A stretch of 40,000 nt of DNA, from assembly GCF_041645475.1 (NCBI RefSeq), contig NZ_JBAZQA010000002.1:227320-267319 (forward strand), written 5' to 3'. A model generated the notes under the pieces. That model searched no databases, was not told the origin of the DNA, and saw only the letters and a program-made list of their open reading frames with translations. The translations under genes and the position numbers were made by a program. Positions 189-16,388 of this stretch are shown in pieces (the first letter of the stretch is position 1; every line of letters starts with the position of its first letter). This DNA comes from Methanoregula sp. GTDB lineage: Archaea > Halobacteriota > Methanomicrobia > Methanomicrobiales > Methanospirillaceae.

Positions 189-1313
189 TTAAGGTTGGGT
201 GTGAGAATGATAACTCTCTTTCAACTTGTTCAAATGAGTATATTTGATAATTCCTTCGTGTTGCAATCGTCCGACAACAATACCTGGGTGAATCTTGATC
301 TTTGAAGCAAATTCCAAGACTGATTTCTCACTTTTTAATTTTTTCAATTCGTTCGAATATTTGGGGGGAATCAGGAACTCGCTTGCCCATTTATCCGCAT
401 CACGTTCTTCTTTCAGGTCCACTCTTTTTCCGTCAATCTCGTCAAGAAAAATTTCTTTTTTATCCTGTTTTAAAAGGTGAGCTATCTCATGGAAAAAAGT
501 GAACCAGATTCGATCATTTGTCTTGCCATAGAGAGATAACTGGATTATTGGTTGATTGGGTTTCAACCACCGGGCAATACCACTCACATGTGCCCGGGGA
601 ATAGACGGGATGATTACTAAAATTACACCGGACTTCAAACATATTTCTTTCAAAGTTTCTTCAATCTCATTAAAGTGAGAAAGAGTAAGTGGTCGAATAG
701 TTTCTAAAGATTCTTCAAAAGTGCTTTTATTGAATTTTGGACTGTCGATCTTTTCCGCTTCAATTTCCCCCAGTCGGATCCAAGACGAAATCGCACCGAA
801 ATCACTCTGATCAGCCCGGGTGCATCTGAATGATCCAGACATTTTCGCAGTATGTGCTTCCCATGCGGCGGGAGATGCTACCTTGAATAATCGTAAAAGA
901 TCATCGACAATTTCAGCGAAGTATTTTTTAGCTACTCTTCGAGTCGGAATATATCCATGTTCCATCAAATCATGGATTGGCAATTTTTTTGCCCATTCAC
1001 CCCATGATTCAAGGCGCTTGGTTTCATGTAACCTGGCGAGATTCTGTTGATATTGTTCCTCCCGGTTCAACCAGAATTCCGCTGTACTGCCGAGCACACG
1101 TTCGAGTTTCAGAGCGGTATCTCTTGTTATGGGTGTTTTTGCTTTGATGATTTCATTGACATGTTTCTGAGACAACTCCATCCTCATAGCAAATTCAGCT
1201 TGCGTCCAACCGCGTTCTTCTAAGAGATCGGTGATGGTCTCTCCGGGTAATGAGACCCAATCCGGCGTGAAACGCTTCATTTTAATAGTCATGGTAATTT
1301 CCGATATATTCAA
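189..1313 (-). CDS. HigA-like XRE-family HTH antitoxin fused to an ImmA/IrrE (M78, COG2856-type) zinc-metallopeptidase domain
   Basis: N-terminal HTH (GWTQAEFAMRMELSQKHVNEIIKAKTPIT). C-terminal HEXXH (FFHEIAHLL) in the usual ImmA/IrrE context. It abuts or overlaps the upstream toxin gene. The real start is probably ATG 1292 or 1280 rather than 1313. Confidence 0.8.
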   Translation of the reverse strand: MNISEITMTIKMKRFTPDWVSLPGETITDLLEERGWTQAEFAMRMELSQKHVNEIIKAKTPITRDTALKLERVLGSTAEFWLNREEQYQQNLARLHETKRLESWGEWAKKLPIHDLMEHGYIPTRRVAKKYFAEIVDDLLRLFKVASPAAWEAHTAKMSGSFRCTRADQSDFGAISSWIRLGEIEAEKIDSPKFNKSTFEESLETIRPLTLSHFNEIEETLKEICLKSGVILVIIPSIPRAHVSGIARWLKPNQPIIQLSLYGKTNDRIWFTFFHEIAHLLKQDKKEIFLDEIDGKRVDLKEERDADKWASEFLIPPKYSNELKKLKSEKSVLEFASKIKIHPGIVVGRLQHEGIIKYTHLNKLKESYHSHTQP

Positions 1314-1614
1314 TGGTGACTTTGTTCACTTTGGACCAGTCAATCCTGCCATCTTTTGTTGGAACTGGTGAGTTCGCCGGTACGAATGTTAATCGGACAA
1401 GTCCAACAAGAGATAATGAATACTCTCCAGCACGCTCTCTTTTAAGTTCATGAGGATTTCCGGCGGGTAAATTTGTCGCAAAAGGAGCAGCCTGAATTTC
1501 TGAAAGACGAGTTCTCAATTTTTTTGCACAGGGAGCACCGAGTTTACGATTGGCTTCTCTTTCGCTTTCACAGATCGCCTGCAGCTCCGGAGTTTTAAAG
1601 CCCACGATGTCCAT
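1282..1614 (-). CDS. HigB-like toxin (RelE/ParE superfamily, plasmid-killer type)
   Basis: 110 aa. NPHELKRERAGEYSLSLVGLVRLTF and the C-terminal IEYIGNYHDY fit the HigB/killer-protein pattern. The toxin-first gene order with an HTH antitoxin is typical of HigBA. Confidence 0.7.
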   Translation of the reverse strand: MDIVGFKTPELQAICESEREANRKLGAPCAKKLRTRLSEIQAAPFATNLPAGNPHELKRERAGEYSLSLVGLVRLTFVPANSPVPTKDGRIDWSKVNKVTIEYIGNYHDY

Positions 1615-2199: not shown

Positions 2200-3205
2200 T
2201 TGCTCTGTAGAAAAGATTTCTTTGAGTGAGAATCGAGCAGAGATTAACCAAAAGATCTAAGGTACGGTGTCTCCTTACAATGTTATGCGAGTAACGAATA
2301 AGGAGACAATAAAGAAATCGTCAGGCCGGTTTATCAGTTTTATCAAACATGCATTCTCGTTAGTACGTTCATCTCATCTCTCGCTGTATTCCTGCAAATA
2401 TTCGAGAAGAGATTATACCCAGCATCAACTTCTGACATTACTTCTCTTCAAAGAATATCGAAAAGAAGACTACCGAACGGTTATCTGGAATCTCGAAGAG
2501 ATGGACCGGATCCGGGAAGCCTTGGTCTTACGACAATTCCGCACTTCACCACGCTTCAGAAATTTCTCTGCCGAATCAAACCCATCTACTTCGATATTCT
2601 CTTAAAATGTACCCTGAAACTATTCTATTTCCCCGAAGACACAATTCCGATTACTGCCATCGATTCATCCGGGTTTACCAGCGGATATTGCAGTCATTAT
2701 TACTCGGAAAGAACCGGAAAGATCCGAAAACATTTCCTGAAAACTTCGATTGTTGTCGATATCGAACTGCAGGTTATCATCGGATTTATGATATCGAACA
2801 GCCGAGTCCATGATTCCCGACATGCTTTCTCTCTTCTGAAAAAATGTCACAAACTCCTTAAATCGCAGTGTTATGTCATGGACCGTGGATACGACTCCGA
2901 GAAAATGCACCGGTTTATTCGCGAATCTCTTCATGCAGACTCGATTATTCCAGCTCGTTCTCATCAATTTTCCACGAATGTCTGGGGGAAATATCGAAAG
3001 GAGATGACCGAGAATTTTGATTCAACTCGCTATCGAAAACGGTTCCTGGTCGAAACCAAGTTCTCCGTCATCAAACGGAGGTTCGGAGCTGACCTGAAAT
3101 CCCGAAAATTTCAGACCCAGATGAAGGAAATCTCTTGCAAGATCATTCTCGCTAACATTGACAGGTTCATACAATTTGTTTGGAGAATGGTTTTCTACAG
3201 AGCAA
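2200..3205 (+). mobile_element. Insertion sequence (~1 kb, IS4/IS5-type DDE transposase) with perfect 15-bp terminal inverted repeats
   Basis: TTGCTCTGTAGAAAA (2200-2214) is the exact reverse complement of TTTTCTACAGAGCAA (3191-3205). Both ends are flanked by A-runs, a possible target duplication. The repeats enclose a DDE transposase reading frame. Confidence 0.7.
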
Positions 3206-3261
3206 AAAAATTATGCGTGACCAGGAGATCTGAGAAATGTTGGGTTGAAGTATTCTTGTGA
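2267..3261 (+). pseudogene. DDE transposase (DDE_Tnp_1-like) interrupted by one -1 frameshift near 2518-2522
   Basis: Motifs VMDRGYDS and YRKRFLVETKFSVIKRRFG. The N-terminal part (…QHQLLTLLLFKEYRKEDYRTVIWNLEEMDRIREA) is in the frame of 2267. The continuation (LGLTTIPHFTTLQKFLCRIKP…AIDSSGF…) is in the frame of 2788-3261. No obvious slippery heptamer at the junction. Confidence 0.7.
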
Positions 3262-3279
3262 CATTTTCTATTTGATTAT

Positions 3280-5004
3280 TCAATCAACAAATTCGGCCAA
3301 TTTTTTATTTTTTGGAACAGCTTTCGATACAATCTGTATCATATCTCCGATACCTTTTGCCTTGATGAATCTAAATTTATTATTTACTAAATTTCCGAGA
3401 ACAAGTCGATACTTATCCCCAGCAATAACCGCGATCGTATCATATTGAATGAGATCTTGTTTCAATTTAATTTCAACATTCGGGCGGATTTTTTCCACGT
3501 CACAAATAGTATTTAGGCGTTGATCATAAGTCTCTAGGGAGAACTCTGGAGTTATTAACCCATGTTTTGCTGAAATAATACGATAGTCAAAATGCATAGC
3601 TTCTGCATAAGCACGTACTTTTTTAAACAGGGTTCCTTGGTAGAGTTCTTTTGCCATTACCTTGCCGTTTGATCCCTCTTCACAAGTGAGTTTGTTTTTC
3701 GAGCACCCGGTAATTACTAAAACATTTTCTTTCCCTTTTAAAAAATCCAGATTTGTTCGTTCGAGTGATCTGATTTGTTTCTCTAACTCTTTCTTTTTAC
3801 ACCGTTCCCATTTTGCTTTATCTTTCAAAATTTCATTAAATACGAACACATTATGAAAACCTCTCCTCCGGTTGCGATTATTTCCACGAAATATCACGAC
3901 ATCAATTTTAATTTCCTTGCAAATTGGGCAGGAGCATTGTTTCCAAGGTTTAGATTCCAATGTCCGTTGATAATACTTCAATAACTCTGGGTCTTCATGC
4001 ATTCGCTCAATAAATTTTTTTAATTTTTCCATGACTTTCTTAAGAGAGATCTCATCGTCATCGAATTTTCTTAAAGAGTTAAGACAATCGTTTGATAAAC
4101 TCGCATATTCATCAGGGTCGATGAATTCTAATTTTTCTTTCGTTAACTTTGATGGTATCCGGATTGCTGAATACCCTGTCCACGATTGATCTATATAATT
4201 AAATTCTGTATGTGCAGAAGTCAACCACGCTTTTCGGAGATGTGATGATGAATCAAACGACGTGGAAATTCCCATATCATCAAGCTCTTTGAATTTAGAG
4301 AATAGTGAATATCGTGCCACTCCGAAAAAATGAATTAACTCTGGCTTCTTTTTTGTTTTATTGATATCTTCAATTAAGGCCTCGATTAGTTGAATAATAA
4401 ATGTGGTTTGTGTTCGTACCAAACCACCAAATGCGAAATGTCGAATTCCATTTTTGTAGAACTTATTGAACATTAGAAGATAATCACGAATTTCAGCACC
4501 TTGAACCGCAACGATTAGCTGAAAATCTTCCTTATACTTATTTTTCCACTCATTATGTGCTTCAACACCGTTTTTGAATGTAATTTCTATACGTTGTTTG
4601 TTTTTTTCCTTATGCATAGGAACAACTAAATGGTCAATGCTAACTCCATAATTGAAATCTAAGTCGCTGTAAATTTTTAAAACATCGGATGTTTTATAGG
4701 GAGGAATTTCTTGATCGATATATGAAAAAGCGCCACAATCCGCGAGAATTTGAAAATCCTGTGGTAGTCCTAAAAAGCTATGAATGCCTTTATCGAGAAT
4801 CGATTTGTATTTTCTTGTGTTTTGCTGAAGATTCGCAATAGAGACAAGAACTCCATCAAAAGGGACTTTTTCTTTCTCGAAGATATCCCACATATAGGAG
4901 TCGTTTTCCATAGGATTTGCATTATGCATCGCAGAATGGGAATCGGTTGAAAAATCATAGCCGGGATCGACCCGGTCGTCCCACTCGGGGATGAAAAAGC
5001 GCAT
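3280..5004 (-). CDS. TGT-fold (DpdA-like transglycosylase) protein fused to a C-terminal DUF6884-like domain
   Basis: The N-terminal ~395 aa carry the ordered TGT signatures: ILADCGAFSY (cf. DSGGFQ), HFAFGGLV (cf. AIGGL), IHFFGVARY, TSFDSSSHL, and zinc motif CSCPIC-x21-H (nt 3853-3936). C-terminal aa ~427-565 (nt ~3310-3726; VLVITGCSKNK…AKELYQGTLFKK…IISAKHGLITP…YDQRL) fit my recollection of DUF6884. Confidence 0.7.
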   Translation of the reverse strand: MRFFIPEWDDRVDPGYDFSTDSHSAMHNANPMENDSYMWDIFEKEKVPFDGVLVSIANLQQNTRKYKSILDKGIHSFLGLPQDFQILADCGAFSYIDQEIPPYKTSDVLKIYSDLDFNYGVSIDHLVVPMHKEKNKQRIEITFKNGVEAHNEWKNKYKEDFQLIVAVQGAEIRDYLLMFNKFYKNGIRHFAFGGLVRTQTTFIIQLIEALIEDINKTKKKPELIHFFGVARYSLFSKFKELDDMGISTSFDSSSHLRKAWLTSAHTEFNYIDQSWTGYSAIRIPSKLTKEKLEFIDPDEYASLSNDCLNSLRKFDDDEISLKKVMEKLKKFIERMHEDPELLKYYQRTLESKPWKQCSCPICKEIKIDVVIFRGNNRNRRRGFHNVFVFNEILKDKAKWERCKKKELEKQIRSLERTNLDFLKGKENVLVITGCSKNKLTCEEGSNGKVMAKELYQGTLFKKVRAYAEAMHFDYRIISAKHGLITPEFSLETYDQRLNTICDVEKIRPNVEIKLKQDLIQYDTIAVIAGDKYRLVLGNLVNNKFRFIKAKGIGDMIQIVSKAVPKNKKLAEFVD

Positions 5005-5062
5005 TAATATGATTCTGTTTCGGATAGTGAAATTTGTTTTTATTTTATGTATTATGGATGAA

Positions 5063-6046
5063 TTACGGATATCTTAACTCATGAGGACTGCTCGGACAAT
5101 CCCATCGTTTATCACAAGTTGTACAGGTATCATCTCCAGGAAGGTTCTCCGCAGTTGGAGCATCCCAACGTTCAACTTGTTTACAGTGTTCAATATTTTT
5201 AACAGTATGGTGAAATTCGTCGAGCGCTTCATGAATATTTTCTATATTTGCGGGATCAGTAAAATCTAATGAAAAGATTGCTTTCTGTCGCATCATTAAA
5301 ATTTGTTGTTCTGATGGATTTGGAATTGCTCGACTGGATAATTCATTTAAAAAATATAATACTCCTTTTTTTGGGTATTTTCCAGTTTTCAAATGATACA
5401 TATAAGCGTAAACAAGTAATTGAAAACGATAATTTTGCATTCTTCTTTGATTTTGTTGATTTTGTGGTTGATGCAATGGATTTTTTGCAGCTTTATAATC
5501 CCAAATTTCTACTAGATCATATTCTTCTGGGATCTCTTCGTCAGATGTATCTTTTAGTACGTCAACAACACCCTGTAAGATATACCCATTCTGTTGATTC
5601 TGAAACCGGTATTCAGTATCTCTAATATTGGGATAAAGGGATGCACCTTCGATCGCATTAAATTGCTGTAATATTCTTAAAGCATGTTGTTCGTCGCCAT
5701 CTCGGTCTAATGTTCGACTATATGATTTAATTCCGCGAACTCGCAAACTTTCATTTATCTGAATAAAAAAAACTTCAACATCATTTTGGGTGGGGAGTTG
5801 TCCTTGGCGTTCAGGATTCAAACGACCTTGATATTGTTGATGTAGTTTATCAAGAACCTGATGAATAATTGTTCCAAACCACAGTTGAATATTATGAGCA
5901 GGGGTATAACCTCGTTGTGAAAAAAAGCCATACTGTCTTGGACAGGTTTTATACGCCAAGATATCTCCAGTGATGCTATATGTGGGTAATGGTTCGTGAA
6001 GATCTCTTCGTGTTACAGTTATGGAATTAAATTCTTCAAATGGCAT
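5063..6046 (-). CDS. PD-(D/E)XK nuclease of the Cas4/AddB type with a four-cysteine Fe-S signature
   Basis: N-terminal Cys (YKTCPRQY) plus C-terminal CTTCDKRWDC gives C…CX2CX5C. Nuclease core GVVDVL…VEIWDYK and QLLVYAY (QxxxY). Likely start is ATG 6046, preceded by AGGGGG, 11 nt after the helicase stop. The ORF-track start 6130 would overlap the helicase. Confidence 0.75.
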   Translation of the reverse strand: MPFEEFNSITVTRRDLHEPLPTYSITGDILAYKTCPRQYGFFSQRGYTPAHNIQLWFGTIIHQVLDKLHQQYQGRLNPERQGQLPTQNDVEVFFIQINESLRVRGIKSYSRTLDRDGDEQHALRILQQFNAIEGASLYPNIRDTEYRFQNQQNGYILQGVVDVLKDTSDEEIPEEYDLVEIWDYKAAKNPLHQPQNQQNQRRMQNYRFQLLVYAYMYHLKTGKYPKKGVLYFLNELSSRAIPNPSEQQILMMRQKAIFSLDFTDPANIENIHEALDEFHHTVKNIEHCKQVERWDAPTAENLPGDDTCTTCDKRWDCPSSPHELRYP

Positions 6047-6056
6047 GAAATTCCCC

Positions 6057-8399
6057 CTAAATAAAATGAACAATTTGTCGAAAACGATTTGGATCTCTTC
6101 CAATAATACCAAATCCAGTTTGGTTATCACCAGTTCGACTTATCCGAAGTTCCTGTTGTGTCAATAAATGAATCAATGCGCATCTTGCTCTTGAATAAGC
6201 TACAAAATAAAATCTTATTTTGTCTTGAGCGGATTTGTCGTGACATGCAATATTGTTTTGAATTTGGTTTTGACAAAATGGTGCATAATCACATTCAATA
6301 TGAATTGATTCATCTTCATCGTCTTCTTGTTGACTTAATCCCCAAATAAAAACAAAATCGAATTCTAAACCTTTTGCTTGGTGAACAGTCATAATTGGTA
6401 AGTGATTAGGAGGTGCGATAATCTCATCATCCTCAGGATCATTTTCGCCGTATGCCATTAGACGAGTAACAAAGAGTTTATAAAAATCCATTAACCATTT
6501 ATGACTGGCATACCCTCCCCGACTACTCGCCCAAATTTCTCCACGATTCGATCTTCGATTTTGATCAAAATAAGGTATTGCAGAAAATTGTTCAAATAAT
6601 GATGATAATTTTCCTAATCGGTACGTTCGTTCAGGATCTTCTTTCCAGTTAGAAAACGGTTGCCGAGAAATAATAAGATAGAATAATTCCGCCATTGACA
6701 GTTTTAGTTTTTCTTGAGGTTGTTTTTGTCGAATACGCCTAGTGGCTTCGTTAACATACATCGATAATTCGGCAGAATTAGGTGCAATTCGTTGATATTC
6801 CTGGATCCATTGCTGTACATTTCTTCCAATATTATTTTTTACCGCCGTTCCTCCTCTCATATACCTAATTCCTTCCAGGTCAGGATCAATAATTGATATA
6901 AATGCTCCAAGAGCAACCGCAATTTCTTCTTGAACCAAAAATTGTCGAGATCGGGGGTTATAAGGAGTGATTCCTTGATTTTTTAATTCATTTACAAATT
7001 GTAATGCATGTCTACTCGTCTCTCTAACGGATTTCATTAAAAGAACGCATTGGCTATAATCTTGAATTTTATTATTGTCATGTAACCATTTGACCATCGA
7101 AGCAAACTGACGTGCAGTATCAGATTTTGTATTCGTGCGAATACAGGTAACAGAGGGATAATTTCCATGAACTTGTGAACCGAATACCAATCTCGGTTTG
7201 TTTTGGATTCGAGCTCCAGGCATATTCATTTGAGGAAATGAAAGAAGATATTCGTTACAATATTCAACGATTTTTTCATGTGAACGATAATTTGTATTTA
7301 AGTAACGAGATGTACATTCGACGCTCCATTGTTGTTGACATCTTTGACTAAAATTAACAATGCATTCAACAGTGCCTCCTCTGAAACGATATAAGGCTTG
7401 ATCATCATCACCAACAATACAAATATTATGAGGGGCATTTCGTGACAGAGAGAAATAAATTAATTCCTGGATTGGATTTGTATCTTGATATTCATCAACC
7501 ATCAAATACTCAAGTCGAGGATACATTTCATAATTCTCGGGATCTCCATCGACAAACAACCGTCCGTGAGGGGTGTTAAGAAATTCTAAAAATTTTGATT
7601 GTAACGTTGAAAAATCACATCTTTGAAAATGTGTTAATTGTTCTTGATATTGCTCGAATCCCTCAACAAGAAGTCGCCACGAATCCCCAGATTCGCGCAT
7701 TAAATTTAAGTTAATTCGATATTCTGTAATCCGGTTGAATAAATTAATTGCAGCTCTCGTGAGCGCCCATTTATTTGGTGGATATTGATGATTATTCCAC
7801 CCTCTATATCCACTTACGGGGTCATATTTTTCAAATAAATAATCAAATTGCTCGTAAACAGGAAGATAATGATCATCTTCTTGAACGAGATTCGAATGTT
7901 CAAATGTGAAAAGGAATTGTTCAAAGTCATCCATTAATCGGAAATTTTGATAATCCGGTGAATGATATTCTTGCATCACATCATTACAGAGACTATGAAG
8001 AGTACAAATTCTAAGATTGTAAATATCAATTGATTCCTGTAATTTTGGATGGTGCTCAAAAAAATATTCTGCGCCAGTGATAATCCTTTCTTTGATATTT
8101 TTTGCAGCCTTTTCAGTGAACGTTGTAACAATTATTGATTTGGGATCAACATTTCGAACAAAAAGAAGATAAAGCGTTCTTAAAACAAGCGTTTCAGTTT
8201 TTCCCGACCCAGGACCAGCAATTATGTGCAATGGACCATTTGTGTGAGTGATGATTTTTCCTTGTTCATTTAATATAATCTCACCGGCGGCATTCGTATT
8301 ATAAATTCTATATCCTAAACGAGGTTCCAATAATTGACTGAATTCTTGAAATTCCATGTTATCCATCCGGTGGTTGTACTTGTTTATTACGGATGTCAC
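6057..8399 (-). CDS. UvrD/Rep-family SF1 DNA helicase
   Basis: Walker A IIAGPGSGKTET, motif II MVDEYQDTNP, YRFRGG and TVHQAKGLEFDFVF. The start may be one of the downstream ATGs (8366 or 8357). Confidence 0.9.
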   Translation of the reverse strand: MTSVINKYNHRMDNMEFQEFSQLLEPRLGYRIYNTNAAGEIILNEQGKIITHTNGPLHIIAGPGSGKTETLVLRTLYLLFVRNVDPKSIIVTTFTEKAAKNIKERIITGAEYFFEHHPKLQESIDIYNLRICTLHSLCNDVMQEYHSPDYQNFRLMDDFEQFLFTFEHSNLVQEDDHYLPVYEQFDYLFEKYDPVSGYRGWNNHQYPPNKWALTRAAINLFNRITEYRINLNLMRESGDSWRLLVEGFEQYQEQLTHFQRCDFSTLQSKFLEFLNTPHGRLFVDGDPENYEMYPRLEYLMVDEYQDTNPIQELIYFSLSRNAPHNICIVGDDDQALYRFRGGTVECIVNFSQRCQQQWSVECTSRYLNTNYRSHEKIVEYCNEYLLSFPQMNMPGARIQNKPRLVFGSQVHGNYPSVTCIRTNTKSDTARQFASMVKWLHDNNKIQDYSQCVLLMKSVRETSRHALQFVNELKNQGITPYNPRSRQFLVQEEIAVALGAFISIIDPDLEGIRYMRGGTAVKNNIGRNVQQWIQEYQRIAPNSAELSMYVNEATRRIRQKQPQEKLKLSMAELFYLIISRQPFSNWKEDPERTYRLGKLSSLFEQFSAIPYFDQNRRSNRGEIWASSRGGYASHKWLMDFYKLFVTRLMAYGENDPEDDEIIAPPNHLPIMTVHQAKGLEFDFVFIWGLSQQEDDEDESIHIECDYAPFCQNQIQNNIACHDKSAQDKIRFYFVAYSRARCALIHLLTQQELRISRTGDNQTGFGIIGRDPNRFRQIVHFI

Positions 8400-8403
8400 C
8401 GAT

Positions 8404-8444
8404 AAACTTATTCATTTGGTGACCATTTAAACGAAAATAAGTTT
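8404..8444. promoter_or_regulatory. Inverted repeat AAACTTATT-n23-AATAAGTTT between the ATPase operon and the helicase gene
   Basis: Perfect 9-bp arms at 8404-8412 and 8436-8444, immediately upstream of the helicase start. Function is unknown (operator or transcript-end structure). Confidence 0.2.
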
Positions 8445-8495
8445 TTAGGGGAATGATTATCATCAAAATATGTAAAAGTTAATCACCGAAAAAAT

Positions 8496-9677
8496 TTAAT
8501 TAGAAATAATCGAAATTAAAACATCTTGCTCTATCGATTTTTTATCCAGATCTAAAGATACATCTAATGCTTGACTGGAAAGCGAAATGACTCGTCGTGT
8601 ATTTCCCTGCGAATGGATGTAAATTTGTTCAATGGATCTCTCAGTAAATGGAGAGAATGAATCATTTTTCTTTGTTCGTTTGTTATTCAGATAGGATATC
8701 AAGAGCATCCGGATCTTTTCCTGATCAAGAGGTTTGAGATTCGCTTCTTTACCGATTCGTTCTGAGAACGCATGATACTCAGCAACAATATTCTGCCAGA
8801 CTTCCGGTGCACAAGCGATGATGAGGGATAATCCCTCCCCGTTGAGATCGATAACGTGCCGGAGATAATTGAGCATTTTTTGTTTCTTCAATGAAGGGAG
8901 TGTTTCTATGTATTCAAATTCATCAATGAGAAGTATGAGCGAAGAAAAACCAAGCTCCTTAAGAATAAATTTTAGAGATCCCAATGCTCGAATTGAATTG
9001 GTATCATTGATATTTTTTCCAAGAGAAAGCTCCTGCCGTTTTGTATATTCTACACCCTCCCCACATAGCCACTCCCAAGAATAGATGGAGTTTTCTTCAT
9101 AGGATAATGCAATGAAAGCACGTGTATAATCGACGAATTTAATTCCATCATTAAGTCGTTGAATAGCCTTTGGAACAATATCTGAGATAAGTACATCTCC
9201 TTTTTCAATCTGTTTCCAACCTTGTCCTTTCCGGATTTTTTCTTCGATCAATCCTTCTTTCGATAATTGGTACGCGATAAGGCCGAGATATTCTTGGGAG
9301 ATATGTTTGACAAATGAATATCCAAGATCATACATAAATTTTGTATAGATATCGAGAAAATTCTCACCAGGTTGAGAGACATATCCAACACAGATCGGGG
9401 TATCGGATTTTTCCGAGAATTGATCTCGGATATGAGATTTAATGAATTTCAATGTATGACTTTTTCCATTCCCATATGAGCCTGTCACAATTATATGATT
9501 TGACTGTCCAGTGAGGACTGTCGATGATAATACCGAATTAATTTTTGTGAGAACCTCATCCTGTCCGATATACACATTGGGATGTTCATCAGGAACCCCG
9601 GAAAACGGAAAGGGGTTTCCAGTTAGCCCGTACTTTGAGTAATCTTTATTTTTTAATGTCAAAGTAAATTCAGTCAA
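8496..9677 (-). CDS. AAA-type ATPase with ExeA/AAA_22-like N-terminal signature
   Basis: YSKYGLTGNPFPFSG…, then Walker A VTGSYGNGKSHT and Walker B LILLIDEFEYI. Only TTG starts (9677 or 9662) precede the conserved N-terminus. It overlaps the upstream gene by 8 nt. Confidence 0.75.
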   Translation of the reverse strand: MTEFTLTLKNKDYSKYGLTGNPFPFSGVPDEHPNVYIGQDEVLTKINSVLSSTVLTGQSNHIIVTGSYGNGKSHTLKFIKSHIRDQFSEKSDTPICVGYVSQPGENFLDIYTKFMYDLGYSFVKHISQEYLGLIAYQLSKEGLIEEKIRKGQGWKQIEKGDVLISDIVPKAIQRLNDGIKFVDYTRAFIALSYEENSIYSWEWLCGEGVEYTKRQELSLGKNINDTNSIRALGSLKFILKELGFSSLILLIDEFEYIETLPSLKKQKMLNYLRHVIDLNGEGLSLIIACAPEVWQNIVAEYHAFSERIGKEANLKPLDQEKIRMLLISYLNNKRTKKNDSFSPFTERSIEQIYIHSQGNTRRVISLSSQALDVSLDLDKKSIEQDVLISIISN

Positions 9678-10512
9678 TTAGTTCACCGCCGTGATATGCA
9701 ACATAGTAGTATGATTTTGGTCCAACATTCAGACCGTTGAGATACTGATTTGAGGATAGTTTCATCGTTATTTTATCAGGGAGTTCGAGGAAATGTACAT
9801 TCTTCACTTTGTTAGCTGATCGTTTGGCGTGGGTTGTGACCGGAGCTCCTGCAAGCTCAATCTTTCCGATATTTTTCATACACAGCTGAATGAATCGTGA
9901 ATCAAAGGAGTCCCGGGAAATCCTCATATTCTGGCAGATATACTCGCGGATCTTGGGAATTTCTACATATCTTTGCCGGAGAGAAAGTCCGGTTTTGATA
10001 TTGAGCGATTGATAGGAATCGAGAAAGGCGGGGATAATAGAGGATGATAACTCAGTGATGGTAAAATATTGGTTGGTGAAGATATTACGTTGAATGGATC
10101 CGATACGTTCTCCCCAATCGCATAATACATCACAGGAGGCCTGATTGAAGTGAACCGGAGAAGATTGCAGGCAAGTAAGAATCTCTTCAGGTGTGGAAGG
10201 TTCAATTGATTGAAGTTGAGTGAAAAATGTCTGATAAAATGAGTAATCCATCATCAAATTATGAATACTAATCCAATTGTTTGTCCGAATATCATCTAGA
10301 AATTCAGAACCTTTTTTTGTTTCATAATATTGTGTCCCATCTTTTTCTAACAACCCAATATTCACAATCTCATCAGCAACATCTTTTCCGCGCTCTTCAG
10401 AAGATTTTAGAAATGTCGTTAGCTCTTGTTTTGAAAACGCTCTTGTCATCTCGGCGAAATAAAGTGTTTCCACAACACGACTCAACGTGACCGGGCGCAT
10501 CGTAAGCCTCAT
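9670..10512 (-). CDS. Hypothetical protein with N-terminal winged-helix-like segment
   Basis: 280 aa. SKQELTTFLKSSEERGKDVADEIVNIGLLEKDGTQYYETKKGSEFL resembles a MarR-like wHTH. The rest is unrecognised. It is translationally coupled on both sides (ATGA overlap at 10509-10512; 8-nt overlap at 9670-9677). Confidence 0.5.
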   Translation of the reverse strand: MRLTMRPVTLSRVVETLYFAEMTRAFSKQELTTFLKSSEERGKDVADEIVNIGLLEKDGTQYYETKKGSEFLDDIRTNNWISIHNLMMDYSFYQTFFTQLQSIEPSTPEEILTCLQSSPVHFNQASCDVLCDWGERIGSIQRNIFTNQYFTITELSSSIIPAFLDSYQSLNIKTGLSLRQRYVEIPKIREYICQNMRISRDSFDSRFIQLCMKNIGKIELAGAPVTTHAKRSANKVKNVHFLELPDKITMKLSSNQYLNGLNVGPKSYYYVAYHGGELID

Positions 10513-11540
10513 ACAAAACCTCCGACTTTAGATTTTGCATATTTGTACGCAATTTTAATCTGAGCGCTATTCATGAAACGATAATCAAGGTACGATTCAA
10601 GATCGCCTTCAAGAATGTGCATCTTCAATTTTCTGATTTCATATGAGATCATCCAGAGGTTATGCATCCCGATAAGTCGTCGTTGAGATCGAACTTGTTC
10701 AAAGGAATTTTTACTACAAACCGGACAAACACAGGGAAGCATTTCAGTTTGTGGCAATTCATTGAATGCAAATGATTTCTGTTCCGGAGCAAAGTATACC
10801 CGATTTGATCCGGCGGATAGGAAGGATGATGAATCGAATGAATCAACACCAAGGTATGTCAACAAGGGAATCATTGCTGGTCCACCTAATCCGAACACAT
10901 GCAATGGTTTCTCCCCGGTCCGTTTTCTGATAGCGAGGATAAGGTCAATAAGATGACGATAATTCGATCGTTTTAAAATTAATCCCCCGATTGCAAATCC
11001 ATTAAAATTTCCTTTACGGTTGAGATAATCGATCATATTCGTCATTACTTTGATATCATTGCCGTGAATGACTGCATAGAGGAGCATATCTTCTCGCTCT
11101 CGGTTTTTCGAAGCGAGGAGGGCATTTTTTACTGTTCTTTGGATATACTCAGCATGTTTATCGTCAGAAATATTGTCAGTGATGAAAACAGGTGCATCGA
11201 GTGTTGCGGCGATATCGGCGCCAATTTCTTCCTGGATTCGTAAAATTTCTAGTGGATCTATAATTGCATTATTCAAACGACTTTGTAATCCGCCACTATC
11301 TGCAAAAAAGATCCCGTTAAATTGGAAATGGTTATGAAGTCCTTTTGTACTTATTCGTTTGAATTTTTCTGATTTACTTATATAATGGGCATTCACAAGC
11401 ATTGTTCTCATTTCAGGAATTTCATTCCAATATTTCGGAAATGATCCGGTTCCTTGTTTATTCAGATGAAATACAGGAAAGAAGATCGGAGTTTCTAAGT
11501 TACCGTGCGCAGTTTCTATAATTTTAATATTAAACGGCAT
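10509..11540 (-). CDS. Catalytic-domain-only tRNA-guanine-transglycosylase family protein (DpdA-like)
   Basis: HGNLETPIFFPV, FFADSGGLQS, GFAIGGL, LHVFGLGGP, GVDSFDSSS and zinc motif CVCPVCS-x17-H. At 343 aa it has no PUA or other C-terminal tRNA-binding domains. Confidence 0.8.
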   Translation of the reverse strand: MPFNIKIIETAHGNLETPIFFPVFHLNKQGTGSFPKYWNEIPEMRTMLVNAHYISKSEKFKRISTKGLHNHFQFNGIFFADSGGLQSRLNNAIIDPLEILRIQEEIGADIAATLDAPVFITDNISDDKHAEYIQRTVKNALLASKNREREDMLLYAVIHGNDIKVMTNMIDYLNRKGNFNGFAIGGLILKRSNYRHLIDLILAIRKRTGEKPLHVFGLGGPAMIPLLTYLGVDSFDSSSFLSAGSNRVYFAPEQKSFAFNELPQTEMLPCVCPVCSKNSFEQVRSQRRLIGMHNLWMISYEIRKLKMHILEGDLESYLDYRFMNSAQIKIAYKYAKSKVGGFV

Positions 11541-11558
11541 TTGAAATACACCACTTAT

Positions 11559-11589
11559 TGATTAGCCTAATTTATAGTTTAGCTAATCA
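11559..11589. promoter_or_regulatory. Inverted repeat TGATTAGC-n15-GCTAATCA enclosing a bidirectional TATA-like element in the divergent promoter region
   Basis: Perfect 8-bp arms (11559-11566 and 11582-11589). The spacer CTAATTTATAGTTTA reads TTTATA on the + strand and TATAAA on the - strand. It sits between the minus-strand operon start (11540) and the wHTH-queC operon (11619). Confidence 0.4.
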
Positions 11590-11618
11590 TAACTATAAGT
11601 ATCTTTTGAAATAATGTT

Positions 11619-11900
11619 GTGAAGGATATGGTATCATTTATTCCAAAATTTCTTTTAACAGATCTCGCGGTGTTATTTTCAAAATTTGGTTACAACGAAT
11701 TTGCTTTTCAAAATGCACTCGAATTGCTTTCACATGATTATAGATATACCTCAATAATTTTATCAAAACTTGAAAAATCGGGATATATTTCAAAACGTCA
11801 GGATCCTTCAGATGGGAGAAAAAGATTCTACAAAATTAATAAAATTAATTTTGAGGATATCATGAAAGAAATAGGAGGAAACAGGAGGGAGAGTAAATGA
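11619..11900 (+). CDS. Small winged-helix (MarR-like) transcriptional regulator
   Basis: YTSIILSKLEKSGYISKRQDPSDGRKRFYKINK is a typical wHTH recognition helix plus wing. ATGA overlap with queC. The start is GTG 11619 or ATG 11628. Confidence 0.65.
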   Translation: MKDMVSFIPKFLLTDLAVLFSKFGYNEFAFQNALELLSHDYRYTSIILSKLEKSGYISKRQDPSDGRKRFYKINKINFEDIMKEIGGNRRESK

Positions 11901-12553
11901 ACTCACGTGCTGTGATAATTCTATCCGGGGGAATGGACAGTACAACTCTTCTTTATGATCTCATCAACCAGAAATACTCAATCCATGCAGTCACTTTCGA
12001 TTATGGACAGAAACATAAAAAAGAGATTTCCTATGCGATAAAAACCTGTGAGCGATTAAAAATTCCACAGAAGATAATTGATATAAATATTCTGAATGAT
12101 CTCGCACCATCTTCACTAACGCGAACCGATTGGGAAGTCCCTGAGGGGAATTATGCAGATAACAACATGAAGCAGACCGTTGTTCCCAACCGGAACATGG
12201 TTCTGCTTAGTCTTGCTGCAGCTTTCGCAATTGGGATCAAAGCCACTCACCTATATTACGGTGCACATTCTGGAGATCATGCAATTTATCCGGATTGCCG
12301 ACCGTCATTCGTTAGCGCAATGGCGACTGCATTTCATCTCTGCGACTGGGATGATCTGACCTTATCTGTACCATATCTTCAGATGTCCAAAGGAGATATT
12401 GTCAAACGCGGATTGTCCCTCGGTGTTGATTATTCCAATACATGGACGTGTTACAAAGGAGAGGAAAAATCCTGTGGAAAATGTGGCTCGTGCGATGAAC
12501 GATTAGCTGCGTTTCGGGAAGCAGGTGTAGACGATCCGTTGGAATATCAATAA
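11897..12553 (+). CDS. queC: 7-cyano-7-deazaguanine synthase QueC
   Basis: PP-loop ILSGGMDSTT, FDYGQKH, and the C-terminal zinc cluster CYKGEEKSCGKCGSCDER. The length (218 aa) is typical. Confidence 0.92.
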   Translation: MNSRAVIILSGGMDSTTLLYDLINQKYSIHAVTFDYGQKHKKEISYAIKTCERLKIPQKIIDINILNDLAPSSLTRTDWEVPEGNYADNNMKQTVVPNRNMVLLSLAAAFAIGIKATHLYYGAHSGDHAIYPDCRPSFVSAMATAFHLCDWDDLTLSVPYLQMSKGDIVKRGLSLGVDYSNTWTCYKGEEKSCGKCGSCDERLAAFREAGVDDPLEYQ

Positions 12554-12652
12554 TTTCCCATTTTTGCATATCAATCTCAAATTAATCACCGGATTTAAAT
12601 ATTTGATTCGCATGATTGTTAATTAAAAAAAACCATCGTGTGATGATGACCT

Positions 12653-13039
12653 ATGGGTAGATATGGAGAATGTGCAATTCTTGCAACAAAATTCTTAGCA
12701 GAAAAGAATATAAAAAATCCAAGGGACGCATGGGAACTAGCTATTTCTAAATTAGTGAAGAATGACCCGAGTGAATGGGTCATGAAGAAGGGATGTCCAA
12801 GAGCTGCATTCCTTAGCCTTTGTGAGGAGGGCCTTGTTCGAGGAGTGGACTGTGGAAAATATACGAGATCAACTAAAAATTAGGCATATGCATTAAATGC
12901 TGTAAAGGAATTAGGTCAAATCTCAAAACCAGTTAAACAATTGGAATTATGGCGAAAAATAGGAAATCAATTTGCTCATTCAGGACAGATGGACGTCGTT
13001 CTATCCCTATGGGACAATGATCTAATTTTGAAAAAATAA
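12653..13039 (+). pseudogene. Conserved-looking hypothetical gene interrupted by a single in-frame TAG (12881-12883)
   Basis: After the TAG the same frame stays open and protein-like to TAA 13037-13039 (…YTRSTKN*AYALNAVKELGQISKPVKQLELWRKIGNQFAHSGQMDVVLSLWDNDLILKK). The KGCPRAAFLSLCEEGLV and QMDVV segments resemble a family I recall as DUF6979-like. Confidence 0.55.
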
Positions 13040-13295: not shown

Positions 13296-16200
13296 CTAAA
13301 TCCCCTTCCCCGCCTTCTTCATAAACCACGCCGGAATCTCCGCATCCAACCGCCACACAATACTCATCGGCTTACTCCCCTCGTGACTCACATACCTCGC
13401 CGTACCTAAGCACACAAACGGCTGCGAAACATTCCCGACCTTATTGAACTCCCGGACAAACAGCAGCACCTTTGAACCACTTATGTACCGCTGCCCCGTA
13501 GGAGACGATGCCGATGTTGTGCTCTGGGACTGCCAGTGAAAGAGCCGCTCGCTTATCGCGTAATCGTTGTACATCGTGGACGGCGAGAAATGCTTCTCGG
13601 ATTTATTGAGCGTGATGAAAAACACATCCAGATTCTTCTCCCGGAGATACAACACACCCTCGCGTTTGCCGGCAACGCTGATCTGGAATGGCGTCCAATG
13701 CCCGAGCCCCGCAAAGATCTGGTCGCGGGAATAGGTACAGTGAAGGGACAACCCGGCGGGGAACCCGAGGTCGAGCGGGCCTTCGAGCACTTCGGTCTTA
13801 TCTTCCAAGTACGCAAGGAGGCTGTCAATCTCGCGGGTCATCCAGTCAACCGAAAGGAACGGCTGCATACCCGTGAGGAGATCCGTGGTCCCCGCAAGTG
13901 GCTGCGTGTGGAATGAATAGTAGAGTATCGCAAGACAGGTGTCACGCCGGGGATCTTCCTTTCCGGCAAACTCAAAACTTTTCATTGCAAGGAACTGTCG
14001 GATGAACCGGATCATCGAGACCGAGTTGAGCGGCAGCAACCGTCTCGCAGCAGTGACAATGCGTTCCTCCTCATCGGGCGTAGGAGCGGAACACAGATGA
14101 GCCTCAGCACACAATTGCCGGAAACTCGACCGCCCGTAGATCTCCCGGGGTTCGAGCACAAAATATTCTAAGAAATTCCCAACCTCCAGCGCCTTCCCGG
14201 ACTCCGCTTCGAACCGGGCAATCTTCTGCACCAGCCCCTTCCGTCGGGTGAGCGATTGTTCAATATGCGCAAGGACCGTCTGTTGCGCAACCTTCTCCAG
14301 GCTGATGAAACAACCCCGGGGAAGGGAAAATGTATTCTCCCGAATCTGCTGCACGAGCGGCACATGCGCATCCGCCAACAGGGCCCGGTACTTTGCATCG
14401 AAATGATAATTCGCATGCTGCCGCCCGACAAAATCCAGCACCGTGAGACATTCCTTCCCCTCACAGAGCCGGAGCCCCCGGCCCAACTGTTGGAGAAAGA
14501 CGGTCATGCTCTCGGTGGGACGGAGGAATAGGATCGTGTTCACTTCGGGAATATCCACACCTTCGTTGTACAGGTCAACAACGAAAATAAACCGGATCTC
14601 TTTTGCCCTTAATTGTTTCTGGACCGATCTCCGCAAGTCATCCAAGCTTTCGGAACTCAAGGAGACTGAGGGAATACCAATTTTCGTGAAGATCTCCGCC
14701 ATATAGTTTGCATGCTCGATACTCACACAAAACCCGAGGCCGATGATATCGTCAATATCTGTGACATATTTCTTGAGCGAATCCGCAATAAGACCCGCTC
14801 GGGTATCATTCCCCGTATAGCGTTTCGAGAGTACGCTCTGGTTGTATCTTCCTCGGGTCCATTCCACATCATCGAGATCAACCGAATCCGCGACACCAAA
14901 ATAATGGAAGGGTGCAAGGAGATTTCTCCCAATGGCTTCCGCAAGCCGAATCTCCGCTGCAATCCGGCCATCGAAATATCCCATGATGTCCAGATTATCC
15001 ATCCTCTCGGGAGTTGCTGTCAGCCCCAACAGAATCTTCGGCTGGTAATGGGATAGGAGACGCTGGTACGATGCCGCTGCCGCGTGATGGAATTCATCCA
15101 CGATGATAAAATCATAATGATCGAGTGCAGTCCGGTCGGAAAATTTCGTACTGTTGAACGTCTGGATCGACATGAAGACGTGATCGGTCTGCGCAGGAAT
15201 CCTACCCGCGACCGCAATATCCCCAAAGTTCTGGTCTTTCAAAATTCCCCGGAATGTCTGGAGACTCTGCTTTAAGATCTCCTCGCGGTGCGCAACGAAG
15301 AGCAGCCGGGCCCGAGGATTCTTCTCCCGGAAGCGGCGGAAGTCGAATGCCGAGATAACGGTCTTTCCGGTTCCTGTTGCCGCCACGACGAGGTTCTTGT
15401 AATGGTTGTGGATCGTTCGTTCCGCTTCAAGGCGTTCGAGAATCTCTTTCTGGAAGGGGAATGGGGTGATGTCGAAAAAGTACGAGTTGCCATCATCTCC
15501 GGGTACTTTCCGTTCCTTGCGAACCGCCTCTTCAAAGGTTGCCCGGTCGTTCTCTGTATATCTCAAAAACTCCGGGTCATTCCAGTAACTCTCAAACGAT
15601 GCCTGGATCTTCCGGATGAGCGGCTTTGCATCTTTCTCCGTCAGCTTGACGTTCCACTCAAGTCCCGACGTGATAGCGGGATTCGAGATATTCGATGACC
15701 CGACATATGCGGTCGAGAACCCGGACTCCCGTTCGAAAAAGTAAGCTTTGGCGTGGAGCCGTGTATGTGCTGTATCGTAGGAGATCCGTACCTCTGTATT
15801 CGGTAACGAAGAAAGGAAATTGATTGCCTTGATTTCGGTTGCACCCGTATAGGCAGTCGTGATCACCCGCAACCGGCCCTTTGTACAGAATTGTTTCAGT
15901 TCCTCCATGAGAAGCCGGATACCACTCCATTTAATGAATGAGACGAGGAGATCAATCCGGTCAGCCGACAGGATCTCAGCCTTAAATTCCTGAATCAGGT
16001 TGGGTTCAAGTGAGGAGCCGGTGAACAGGCTGCTTTGCGCAAGGGGGGTGACGGGCCGGGCTGATGATCCTTTTTCGTCGCCGACCGAAAAGAGAATTTC
16101 TCCATCGCCCGATATCACACACTCGCCAAGACATTCTTCGTTCGTAATCGATGCAAGCAGTCTGATGATCTCATTACAGCAGGTGATTTGTTCTGTGGCT

Positions 16201-16388
16201 GACCCTTCTGAATTCTCCAGGAACGTGAGAGACTTCTTTAGGATCGGGCCGAGGTACTGAGCGAGAAGAACGGGCGAATCGAAATTTTTCAGGGTGTCCT
16301 TGCGGATTGTTTTATTCTGCCCACGAAGTTTTTCTTCAAGATGAGTGTTGATCAGTTGTTCGTAGAGACCAGGAGGGAGTGATTTCAT
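13296..16388 (-). CDS. PLD-family nuclease domain + SF2 (DEAD/DEAH, ResIII-type) helicase + C-terminal DUF3427 fusion protein
   Basis: HKD motif RLHAKAYFF…VGSSNIS, Walker A VVAATGTGKT, and DEFH box IIVDEFHHAAA. The C-terminal block (FFITLNKSEKHFSPSTMYNDYAISERLFHWQSQS…VLLFVRE) is typical of DUF3427. Confidence 0.85.
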   Translation of the reverse strand: MKSLPPGLYEQLINTHLEEKLRGQNKTIRKDTLKNFDSPVLLAQYLGPILKKSLTFLENSEGSATEQITCCNEIIRLLASITNEECLGECVISGDGEILFSVGDEKGSSARPVTPLAQSSLFTGSSLEPNLIQEFKAEILSADRIDLLVSFIKWSGIRLLMEELKQFCTKGRLRVITTAYTGATEIKAINFLSSLPNTEVRISYDTAHTRLHAKAYFFERESGFSTAYVGSSNISNPAITSGLEWNVKLTEKDAKPLIRKIQASFESYWNDPEFLRYTENDRATFEEAVRKERKVPGDDGNSYFFDITPFPFQKEILERLEAERTIHNHYKNLVVAATGTGKTVISAFDFRRFREKNPRARLLFVAHREEILKQSLQTFRGILKDQNFGDIAVAGRIPAQTDHVFMSIQTFNSTKFSDRTALDHYDFIIVDEFHHAAAASYQRLLSHYQPKILLGLTATPERMDNLDIMGYFDGRIAAEIRLAEAIGRNLLAPFHYFGVADSVDLDDVEWTRGRYNQSVLSKRYTGNDTRAGLIADSLKKYVTDIDDIIGLGFCVSIEHANYMAEIFTKIGIPSVSLSSESLDDLRRSVQKQLRAKEIRFIFVVDLYNEGVDIPEVNTILFLRPTESMTVFLQQLGRGLRLCEGKECLTVLDFVGRQHANYHFDAKYRALLADAHVPLVQQIRENTFSLPRGCFISLEKVAQQTVLAHIEQSLTRRKGLVQKIARFEAESGKALEVGNFLEYFVLEPREIYGRSSFRQLCAEAHLCSAPTPDEEERIVTAARRLLPLNSVSMIRFIRQFLAMKSFEFAGKEDPRRDTCLAILYYSFHTQPLAGTTDLLTGMQPFLSVDWMTREIDSLLAYLEDKTEVLEGPLDLGFPAGLSLHCTYSRDQIFAGLGHWTPFQISVAGKREGVLYLREKNLDVFFITLNKSEKHFSPSTMYNDYAISERLFHWQSQSTTSASSPTGQRYISGSKVLLFVREFNKVGNVSQPFVCLGTARYVSHEGSKPMSIVWRLDAEIPAWFMKKAGKGI

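Follow-up and report, generated by a model that had tools for sequence, protein, structure and literature searches.

The nearest described system to the locus reported here is the bacterial Dpd system of Salmonella Montevideo, in which DpdA, DpdB, and DpdC modify DNA and DpdD to DpdK restrict (Thiaville 2016, Yuan 2018, Gedara 2023); bacterial DpdA requires an ATPase (PMC10164549). Viral DpdA1 to DpdA4 insert bases of the 7-cyano-7-deazaguanine (preQ0) type into DNA without DpdB and are encoded beside preQ0 genes, serving viruses as anti-restriction devices (Hutinet 2019; Cui 2023). Deazaguanine marking is known so far from these cellular islands of bacteria and from viruses. Here we describe an island at positions 3280 to 12553 of a 40,000-nucleotide (nt) stretch of a Methanoregula genome (contig NZ_JBAZQA010000002.1, positions 227,320 to 267,319, forward strand), called the window below. 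It encodes a DpdA fused to a DUF6884 domain (DpdA~DUF6884), a UvrD-family helicase, a Cas4-like nuclease, QueC, a MarR-like regulator, and a set of three coupled genes, the triad, for a second guanine transglycosylase, a triple winged-helix protein, and a BrxD-like ATPase. We put the probability at about 0.6 that the two cassettes of the island make up a composite restriction-modification system of the Dpd type, with 7-deazaguanine as the mark on host DNA and the triad as a second writer. If so, cellular marking of DNA with deazaguanine extends to archaea; to our knowledge, 7-deazaguanine in the DNA of cellular archaea has not been reported before.

A preliminary description of the island, made from the sequence alone, had treated the 574-amino-acid (aa) protein as a second, very divergent protein of the tRNA-guanine transglycosylase (TGT) fold, joined to a DUF6884-like domain. 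The fusion is real, but the protein is more than a paralogue: it passes the NCBIfam equivalog model for DpdA (NF041059; 310 bits versus a cutoff of 200) and matches DpdA in PADLOC with an E value of 2.9e-83 (PDC-M57A, 1e-15). By sequence, residues 1 to 394 match the Salmonella DpdA structure (Protein Data Bank [PDB] 7UI4; E value, 1.8e-74), and an AlphaFold2 model of the protein (predicted local distance difference test [pLDDT], 87.6) superimposes on that structure in Foldseek with a TM score of 0.85 and a root mean square deviation of 2.4 Å. Three Salmonella DpdA residues are essential or base-binding, namely, D95 (Asp general acid), D256 (nucleophile), and D130 (base-binding) (PMC10164549). 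Their counterparts D89, D251, and D124 are, like C357, C359, C362, and H384, invariant across 15 orthologues of the transglycosylase domain (residues 1 to 397, nt 3814 to 5004). NCBI already names the archaeal orthologues "tRNA-guanine transglycosylase DpdA," and the two TGT-fold paralogues of the window share 27% identity over about 200 aa. These data identify the 574-aa protein, at the level of sequence and predicted fold, as a genuine DpdA of the cellular (bDpdA-like) type, which sets it apart from the viral enzymes.

The fused DUF6884 domain (residues 432 to 543, nt 3376 to 3711; Pfam match, 5e-18) may stand in for DpdC. Pfam curators regard DUF6884 as distantly related to YaaA/PF03883, the family of DpdC, and describe conserved CxxxK and LSAxxG motifs (PMC11701544). 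Both motifs are present and invariant in the window protein and its orthologues, and residues C434, K436, K438, S478, and A479 are invariant across the same 15 sequences. PADLOC DpdC models match the window domain weakly (9e-5 to 2.5e-3) and match homologues at 4e-7 and 2.7e-7; several orthologues also match PF03883. A profile of the domain aligns weakly with YaaA (5CAJ; E value, 0.089). The Foldseek list for the full-length model was dominated by the DpdA domain, and the YaaA fold of DUF6884 was not recovered. It is plausible from these weak similarities that DUF6884 is a relative of the YaaA/DpdC superfamily. The preliminary description had recognized no DpdC: profile scans of the island proteins indeed found no DUF328 protein, but a DpdC-like domain appears to be present in fused form. 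The two domains are arranged in several ways, with DUF6884 fused C-terminally to DpdA in Methanoregula and haloarchaea, fused N-terminally in locus L159, and encoded by a separate gene adjoining dpdA in the four-gene blocks described below and in 10 haloarchaeal loci.

Comparative genomics indicates that the window joins two cassettes, each of which is found separately elsewhere. The triad was sought in a scan with one genome per species, yielding 80 loci in which ORFs were called and then searched with the window proteins. Members of the TGT family (at least 34% identity) are present in 58 of the 80 loci. The winged-helix gene adjoins the TGT gene in 56 of the 58 loci and the ATPase gene does so in 57, in a nearly constant order and with overlapping junctions; the exceptions are L012, where the contig ends, and L037, where a solitary remnant is left. 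The census of gene neighborhoods that the preliminary description had proposed thus finds the homologues together across genomes, with the triad intact in 56 or 57 of 58 loci. The hosts, from at least four archaeal lineages, are Methanoregula, Methanosarcina, Bathyarchaeia, Aenigmatarchaeota, and some 45 species of Halobacteria; occurrence is patchy, and several haloarchaeal copies are plasmid-borne. Within 10 kb, the triad has a DpdA homologue in 49 of the 58 loci and QueC in 28. Neighbor clustering and Pfam scans show that the haloarchaeal islands combine FolE, QueD, QueE, and QueC with the triad and with DpdA and DUF6884, the latter two either as a 967-aa DpdA~DUF6884 fusion or as separate genes, with a 235-aa DUF6884 protein encoded after DpdA. 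In the window itself, G+C content is 0.34 to 0.40 over positions 3000 to 13000 and 0.50 to 0.63 over most of the remainder, and this low-G+C region is compositionally foreign to its Methanoregula host. Because the composition is foreign and the same combination occurs in dozens of independent genomes, the grouping of these genes is more than chance. The low G+C content, the remnant of an insertion sequence (IS) element nearby, and the plasmid copies in haloarchaea are signs of mobility.

Cassette 1 consists of the MarR-queC gene pair divergent from the genes for the TGT, the triple winged-helix protein, and the BrxD-like ATPase, and it stands alone in L002, L003, and L008. Cassette 2 consists of UvrD, the Cas4-like nuclease, and DpdA~DUF6884, and it is found again both as a block of four genes and in fused forms of either order. 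A second scan, of metagenomes and starting from DpdA~DUF6884, found the block DUF6884, UvrD, Cas4-like nuclease, and DpdA in 12 loci, all of which lack the triad according to a PADLOC check. The same scan found the DpdA~DUF6884 fusion with the triad in L096, L099, L104, L105, L109, and L133 and a more divergent triad with a different gene order in L107 to L112. A further architecture, in L159 (5832 to 20277) and L164, comprises FolE2, QueC, QueE, and QueD, a 701-aa fusion in the reversed order DUF6884-DpdA, a NurA-like protein, HerA, a 601-aa protein, UvrD, and a Cas4-like nuclease, together with a convergent 312-aa TGT, a third kind of short TGT, accompanied by a SWIM-domain gene; here too, two TGT-fold paralogues occur with UvrD and a Cas4-like nuclease.

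The modules that accompany the writers vary. In Methanoculleus horonobensis (L082), DpdA~DUF6884 is followed by UvrD and a Cas4-like nuclease, the triad is absent, and genes for a 262-aa protein, a 1129-aa AAA protein, and a DpdJ-like helicase (PADLOC DpdJ, 2e-66) diverge from the fusion gene. The orthologous module directly follows the triad in Methanosarcina sp. Mfa9 (L005), where DpdA is absent. The DpdJ-like module therefore joins DpdA~DUF6884 without the triad in one genome and the triad without DpdA in the other, a sign of interchangeability. In L003, BLASTP found no homology between the genes after the triad and this module. Haloarcula montana (L017) also lacks DpdA and combines the entire preQ0 pathway with the triad and a UvrD-nuclease fusion; altogether, L002, L003, L005, L008, and L017 carry the triad without DpdA within 10 kb. 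About a dozen haloarchaeal loci carry a DruE/DrmA-like helicase and a phospholipase D (PLD) protein, and HerA or PglZ-like genes occur in a few related loci (L003, L011). We conclude that effector modules differ between lineages and are swapped. The preliminary description had proposed a single new architecture: its Dpd-like, 7-deazaguanine-based character holds, whereas the six minus-strand genes are two separable cassettes and not one indivisible system. It had also allowed for a mark on either DNA or protein; the comparative evidence points to DNA, and a protein target has no support.

The first triad protein (343 aa) matches the TGT family (PF01702, 1.6e-38), and its closest subfamily is archaeal TGT, or arcTGT (TIGR00432, 181 bits versus a cutoff of 350; DpdA, 38.7 bits). 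A profile of the family aligns end to end with residues 20 to 347, the catalytic domain alone, of the 582-aa Pyrococcus horikoshii arcTGT TgtA (1IQ8; E value, 4.7e-55). D95, D130, and D249 of that enzyme and its Cys3-His zinc site are conserved; in the triad TGT, D81, D115, D233, D236, C270, C272, C275, and H293, which include the two catalytic Asp residues, the base-binding Asp, and the zinc site, are 100% conserved across 57 members. The protein falls below the TgtA equivalog cutoff and, in the 1IQ8 alignment, lacks the C1, C2, and PUA tRNA-binding domains. Sequence similarity points clearly to its derivation from the archaeal tRNA enzyme. Unlike arcTGT, however, the 343-aa TGT is encoded by an accessory gene that is patchily distributed, partly plasmid-borne, and coupled to genes for a winged-helix protein and an ATPase. 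The nearest outgroup (28 to 31% identity; L055 to L069, metagenome-assembled genomes [MAGs] of Theionarchaea, Methanofastidiosia, and Thermococci) is also catalytic domain only, at 340 to 390 aa, and its neighbors are housekeeping genes: an eRF1-like gene, UbiA, GMP synthase, and a PyrK-like gene. These outgroup proteins may be minimal or split tRNA enzymes and the evolutionary source of the defense-island TGT.

The two partners of the TGT are equally constant. The 393-aa ATPase had been called ExeA-like, but BrxD-like fits better: it matches PF10923 (BrxC_BrxD) at 1.4e-14 (54 bits versus a Pfam threshold of 22), as well as AAA_22, and its Walker A lysine (K72) and Walker B residues (D252-E253) are invariant across 58 orthologues. 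It is not a true BrxD of a bacteriophage exclusion (BREX) system, being far below the NCBIfam equivalog cutoff (NF033438; 9e-11, 41.5 bits versus 350) and unaccompanied by other BREX genes. The 280-aa protein has no Pfam family, and all of its database names are "hypothetical." Its AlphaFold2 model (pLDDT, 87.6; predicted TM score, 0.84) comprises three tandem winged-helix units and a small C-terminal beta domain. Foldseek found no PDB match to the model at an E value of <1e-3, the best subthreshold matches being the tandem winged-helix proteins SelB (C terminus), UFL1/DDRGK1, RPC62, and MarR. The family is small, with 189 cluster representatives at an E value of ≤1e-3 among 1.84 billion. No winged-helix homologue was found in 2.9 million viral contigs, in which TGT relatives are distant (22 to 35% identity) and close ones are absent; we therefore rejected a viral origin or an anti-restriction role. 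The set of TGT, triple winged-helix protein, and BrxD-like ATPase appears to be undescribed and widespread in cultivable archaea. We found no paper on these archaeal loci, whether for DpdA with UvrD, DUF6884 in the role of DpdC, or the triad, although an earlier description is possible given that the subscription literature was incompletely covered.

The pairing of UvrD with a Cas4-like nuclease, remarked upon in the preliminary description, proved to be a recurrent partner of DpdA. The 780-aa helicase matches PF00580 (8e-54) and UvrD_C (5e-21), and its translation contains the Walker A motif GPGSGKTE and motif II, DEYQD. The nuclease (full ORF, 355 aa) matches PF12705 (3.6e-17) and, weakly, Cas4; its translation contains the RecB-type motifs D..DYK and QLLVY and the Fe-S cysteines of the Cas4/AddB type, C63 and CTTCDKRWDC (CxxCx5C). 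Translation probably starts at M29 (window position 6046), as in the L004 orthologue, in which case the gene does not overlap uvrD. UvrD adjoins DpdA and the Cas4-like gene in L082, L086, L136, and L139 and in the four-gene blocks of L143 to L162; the pair is also linked to DpdA in L083. Beside the triads of haloarchaeal loci L017 and L031, UvrD and the PD-(D/E)XK nuclease form one 1054-aa protein. Three bacterial loci (L071, L075, and L077, from a member of the Verrucomicrobia, a proteobacterium, and an unclassified bacterium) encode TGT-fold proteins of ∼300 aa, with weak DpdA matches, convergent with a Cas4-like-UvrD pair; neither DpdA nor DUF6884 was detected in them, and they could be minimal three-gene relatives of the system.

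Compared with bacterial Dpd, the island shares an orthologous DpdA whose catalytic Asp triad and zinc site are preserved, preQ0 genes within a mobile island, and, plausibly, a partner of DpdA from the YaaA/DUF328 superfamily; a DpdJ-like helicase is present in related archaeal loci (PADLOC scores, 2e-66 and 8.5e-61). It differs in that none of its 10 proteins matches DpdB in PADLOC or NCBIfam and DUF6884, fused to DpdA, may take the place of DpdC. The putative window effector is UvrD with a Cas4-like nuclease: PADLOC found no DpdD to DpdK gene in the window, and the DpdJ-like helicase is limited to L005 and L082. It differs further in its extra, arcTGT-derived transglycosylase with an ATPase and winged-helix partner of its own and in its archaeal hosts; the archaeal origin surmised from the sequence was correct, a protein identical to the 343-aa TGT being recorded for Methanoregula sp., as was the absence of a ParB-like DpdB, a CD-NTase, and TatD, none of which was matched in the PADLOC and NCBIfam scans. 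QueC- and TGT-family proteins occur in a defense context, as they do here, in the type IV cyclic oligonucleotide-based antiphage signaling system (CBASS), with its QueC-like Cap9 and TGT-like Cap10, and in Qat (QatC). The 343-aa TGT matches the CBASS TGT model at 9e-6. Both systems were rejected, since no CD-NTase, TatD, or QatA, QatB, or QatD was matched in those scans and QueC is canonical (PF06508, 1.6e-68; TIGR00364, 217 bits versus a cutoff of 150) and only marginally QatC-like (PADLOC E value, 0.0076; NCBIfam, 5.9e-6, 25 bits versus a cutoff of 280).

Another described relative is BREX-related capture (BRC), which comprises HerA/FtsK, PglZ, and DUF6079, with HerA/FtsK universal and TGT and GNAT optional (NAR 2026, PMC12839542). 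In both, a defense locus combines a TGT with P-loop ATPases of the BREX type and a tripartite, DNA-binding winged-helix protein; the authors of that study, too, propose an NTPase that substitutes for DpdB, and some BRC members are from haloarchaea or Methanosarcina (PMC12839542). However, the STAND NTPase there has ∼175 aa, whereas the BrxD-like ATPase here has 393 aa and GNAT is missing, and the BRC study reports no homologue of DpdC and does not mention a DpdA gene (PMC12839542), whereas 49 of the 58 triad loci have DpdA nearby. Membership of the window in BRC was rejected on gene content and NTPase size, as Pfam and PADLOC matched none of the island proteins to HerA, PglZ, or DUF6079 and GNAT is absent. 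In a Halobacteriales MAG (L011, 2918 to 9590), genes for a PglZ-like 632-aa protein and for 336-aa and 1256-aa partners diverge from the triad, DpdA~DUF6884, and preQ0 genes; this locus may be a bridge between these islands and published BRC systems.

In the mechanism that we propose, the DpdA domain would exchange genomic guanine for preQ0, a reaction established for Salmonella DpdA and expected here from orthology and the intact catalytic residues. The fused DUF6884 would then act on the inserted base or the flipped nucleotide, most likely by converting the nitrile as DpdC does, with its invariant Cys-x-Lys-x-Lys as a candidate catalytic site. UvrD and the Fe-S PD-(D/E)XK nuclease could form a motor-nuclease like RecB or AddAB that degrades unmarked DNA, as their genomic context suggests, while QueC would boost preQ0 production, controlled by a MarR-type switch at the conserved intergenic palindromes. 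The triad would be a second, ATP-driven DNA-guanine transglycosylase machine, with catalysis by the arcTGT-derived enzyme, DNA binding and selection by the tandem winged-helix protein, and an AAA+ ATPase in the part that the ParB-like DpdB has for bacterial DpdA. Our guess is that the two writers probably differ in their target sites or in the effector modules that they serve. We prefer the triad as a second writer because it occupies a writer's place and adjoins the substrate pathway: it lies next to the DpdJ-like module in L005, with the preQ0 genes in L017, and across a control region shared with queC in the window. That the triad evolved independently as such a machine, from arcTGT and not DpdA and with an AAA+ and not a ParB-like ATPase, is a tentative proposal that we hold at somewhat less than even odds; a tRNA-modifying enzyme would then have been recruited to DNA for a second time.

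Several observations weigh against a composite system with two writers. Most loci keep both writers, which look redundant within a single island. The window has queC alone, so that preQ0 synthesis relies on host genes outside it, and about two-thirds of the haloarchaeal loci have no recognizable nuclease within 10 kb. The scores that relate DUF6884 to DpdC are weak. The short TGT of the outgroup is, judging from its gene neighbors, probably a tRNA enzyme, and since it is equally short, the missing PUA and C-terminal domains of the triad TGT are no argument for a DNA substrate. The last point favors a reading in which the cassettes are mere neighbors, UvrD, the Cas4-like nuclease, and DpdA~DUF6884 being a self-contained restriction-modification system while QueC and the TGT triad modify host or viral tRNA. 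Each cassette is indeed found alone elsewhere, and the TGT scores far closer to arcTGT than to DpdA (181 versus 38.7 bits). This separation is nevertheless improbable. In 49 of 58 loci, DpdA and the triad are no more than 10 kb apart, in lineages with 35 to 45% protein identity, which goes far beyond ordinary island neighborhood; the distribution is patchy and partly on plasmids; the triad takes the place of DpdA beside the DpdJ-like module in L005; and its obligatory partners, a tandem winged-helix protein of DNA type and an ORC/BrxD-like ATPase, are needed by no tRNA TGT.

The rival that we rate highest, although still unlikely, accepts a DNA-directed triad but makes DpdA~DUF6884 the sole writer. 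The TGT, winged-helix protein, and ATPase would then be a sensing or restriction arm, an ATP-driven scanner that excises unmodified guanine and leaves behind an abasic site or a covalent Asp-ribosyl adduct; the host's own DNA would be spared, its 7-deazaguanine not being excisable. Insertion of 7-deazaguanine by TGT enzymes is irreversible, in keeping with such immunity. Some 30 haloarchaeal loci strictly conserve, besides preQ0 genes, just the triad and DpdA~DUF6884 and have no further nuclease within 10 kb; the ATPase motifs and the catalytic Asp residues are invariant; and DNA glycosylases are now known among defense effectors (bioRxiv 10.1101/2025.10.29.685425). In the five loci with a triad and no DpdA, however, an unopposed attacker of guanine would be self-toxic, and in four of them (all but L005), QueC or the entire preQ0 pathway lies beside the triad, as fits a writer; the triad and queC of Methanoregula also have a common conserved divergent promoter region. 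The least likely alternative dispenses with restriction, the island being an epigenetic or DNA protection system in which UvrD and the Cas4-like nuclease belong to the writing machinery and unwind or nick DNA for base exchange, like the ATPase of DpdB, or repair failed exchanges. It would account for UvrD as the sole ATPase of the four-gene block, given that bacterial DpdA requires one (PMC10164549), and for the many haloarchaeal loci without a visible effector. Against it stand the intact RecB-type motif set of the nuclease, the exchange of effector modules between lineages as in restriction-modification systems, and a defense-island setting that includes a type IV restriction enzyme, toxin-antitoxin genes, IS elements, and DpdJ-like, DruE/DrmA-like helicase, PLD, HerA, and PglZ-like neighbors.

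If the triad is a second writer, 7-deazaguanine is present in the chromosomes of many haloarchaea and methanogens that can be cultivated, and the writer, ATPase helper, and nuclease arm are interchangeable cassettes; a likely function is also offered for DUF6884 and for an unannotated winged-helix family. Type strains such as Haloferax gibbonsii ATCC 33959, Haloarcula vallismortis ATCC 29715, and Halococcus salifodinae DSM 8989 carry the triad, which makes the question directly testable. Natural strains with a single cassette are available in Methanosarcina sp. Mfa9 (triad only) and Methanoculleus horonobensis (DpdA only).

The layout of the island agrees with the preliminary description, and all ORFs were verified at the coordinates given there (Table 1). 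Six co-oriented genes run along the minus strand from 11540 to 3280, transcribed in the order TGT, 280-aa protein, 393-aa ATPase, UvrD, PD-(D/E)XK nuclease, and DpdA~DUF6884, and the MarR-like gene and queC diverge from them on the plus strand. The coupling reported for the triad is evident as a 4-nt overlap of the TGT stop with the winged-helix start (10509 to 10512) and an 8-nt overlap of the winged-helix and ATPase genes (9670 to 9677); the MarR and queC genes overlap by 4 nt (11897 to 11900). Orthologous loci show the same overlaps.

Table 1. Features of the Methanoregula island and its right edge (positions in the window)
Feature	Position	Strand	Size and basis
dpdA~DUF6884 fusion	3280..5004	-	574 aa; NCBIfam, PADLOC, 7UI4, Pfam
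Cas4-like PD-(D/E)XK nuclease	5063..6046 (ORF to GTG at 6130)	-	PF12705, weak Cas4 matches
UvrD-family superfamily 1 helicase	6057..8399	-	780 aa; PF00580, UvrD_C
BrxD-like P-loop/AAA+ ATPase (third triad gene)	8496..9677	-	393 aa; PF10923
Triple winged-helix protein (second triad gene)	9670..10512	-	280 aa; AlphaFold2 model
arcTGT-derived guanine transglycosylase (first triad gene)	10509..11540	-	343 aa; PF01702, TIGR00432
Candidate divergent control region between TGT operon and MarR-queC operon	11541..11618		Palindromes; conserved core
MarR-like winged-helix regulator	11619..11900	+	93 aa; sub-cutoff MarR matches
queC (7-cyano-7-deazaguanine synthase; final preQ0 synthesis step)	11897..12553	+	218 aa; PF06508, TIGR00364
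DUF6979 gene with in-frame TAG, right island edge	12653..13039	+	PF22399

The 93-aa regulator matches MarR (1.2e-4) and SarA/Rot (6.6e-4), in all cases below cutoff, and its gene holds the same position in L001 and in L003 to L008. The 78-bp region between the divergent operons contains two interleaved perfect 8-nt palindromes, TGATTAGC/GCTAATCA and TTATAGTT/AACTATAA. A core, ATACTTATAGTTATGAGTAGTC..ATTAGTCTAAT, is kept in Methanoregula, Methanosarcina sp. Mfa9, and L006, whose proteins are just 55 to 60% identical. We infer that the region is a candidate operator for the MarR-like protein, overlapping both promoters.

At its left edge, the island is adjoined by a degenerate IS element (2200 to 3205) directly at the 3′ end of dpdA~DUF6884, in which 22-nt imperfect terminal inverted repeats (2200 to 2221 and 3184 to 3205) flank two broken DDE_Tnp_1 transposase ORFs. 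Integration at a tRNA gene was ruled out, as the window contains none, and att repeats were ruled out, as no direct repeats flank the island. At the right edge, the DUF6979 gene (PF22399, 1.5e-22, half of the profile covered) has a TAG at 12881 to 12883 where the orthologues in L004 and L007, uninterrupted at 128 to 130 aa, have Lys; the frame stays open for 51 further codons. The gene is kept beside queC in five Methanoregulaceae loci, and the window copy, judged by this interrupted frame, is probably a recent pseudogene.

A type IV restriction enzyme gene (13296 to 16388, minus strand) adjoins the island in DNA of host G+C content. Its product is SauUSI-like, with PLD, helicase, and DUF3427 regions (PADLOC mREase_IV, 1.8e-216). 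A homologue lies at 2706 to 5843 of L003, and a very close one lies in L144 (1019 to 4141), directly upstream of and on the same strand as a DUF6884-UvrD-Cas4-like-DpdA block; the association of this enzyme with the DpdA block may be more than island neighborhood. Just past the gene are two copies of a GC-rich 27-nt direct repeat (16636 to 16662 and 16910 to 16936), 81% identical and 274 nt apart. Near the left end of the window (189 to 1614, minus strand; G+C, 0.39), a gene for an HTH_3 and M78 (ImmA/IrrE-like) peptidase overlaps a 110-aa upstream gene, and the two resemble a regulator or toxin-antitoxin pair. On the host side are a RhuM-family gene and a T2SSE/T2SSF-type pair of ATPase and membrane protein (19050 to 19775 and 25044 to 28953), the latter resembling archaeal pilus or archaellum assembly genes.

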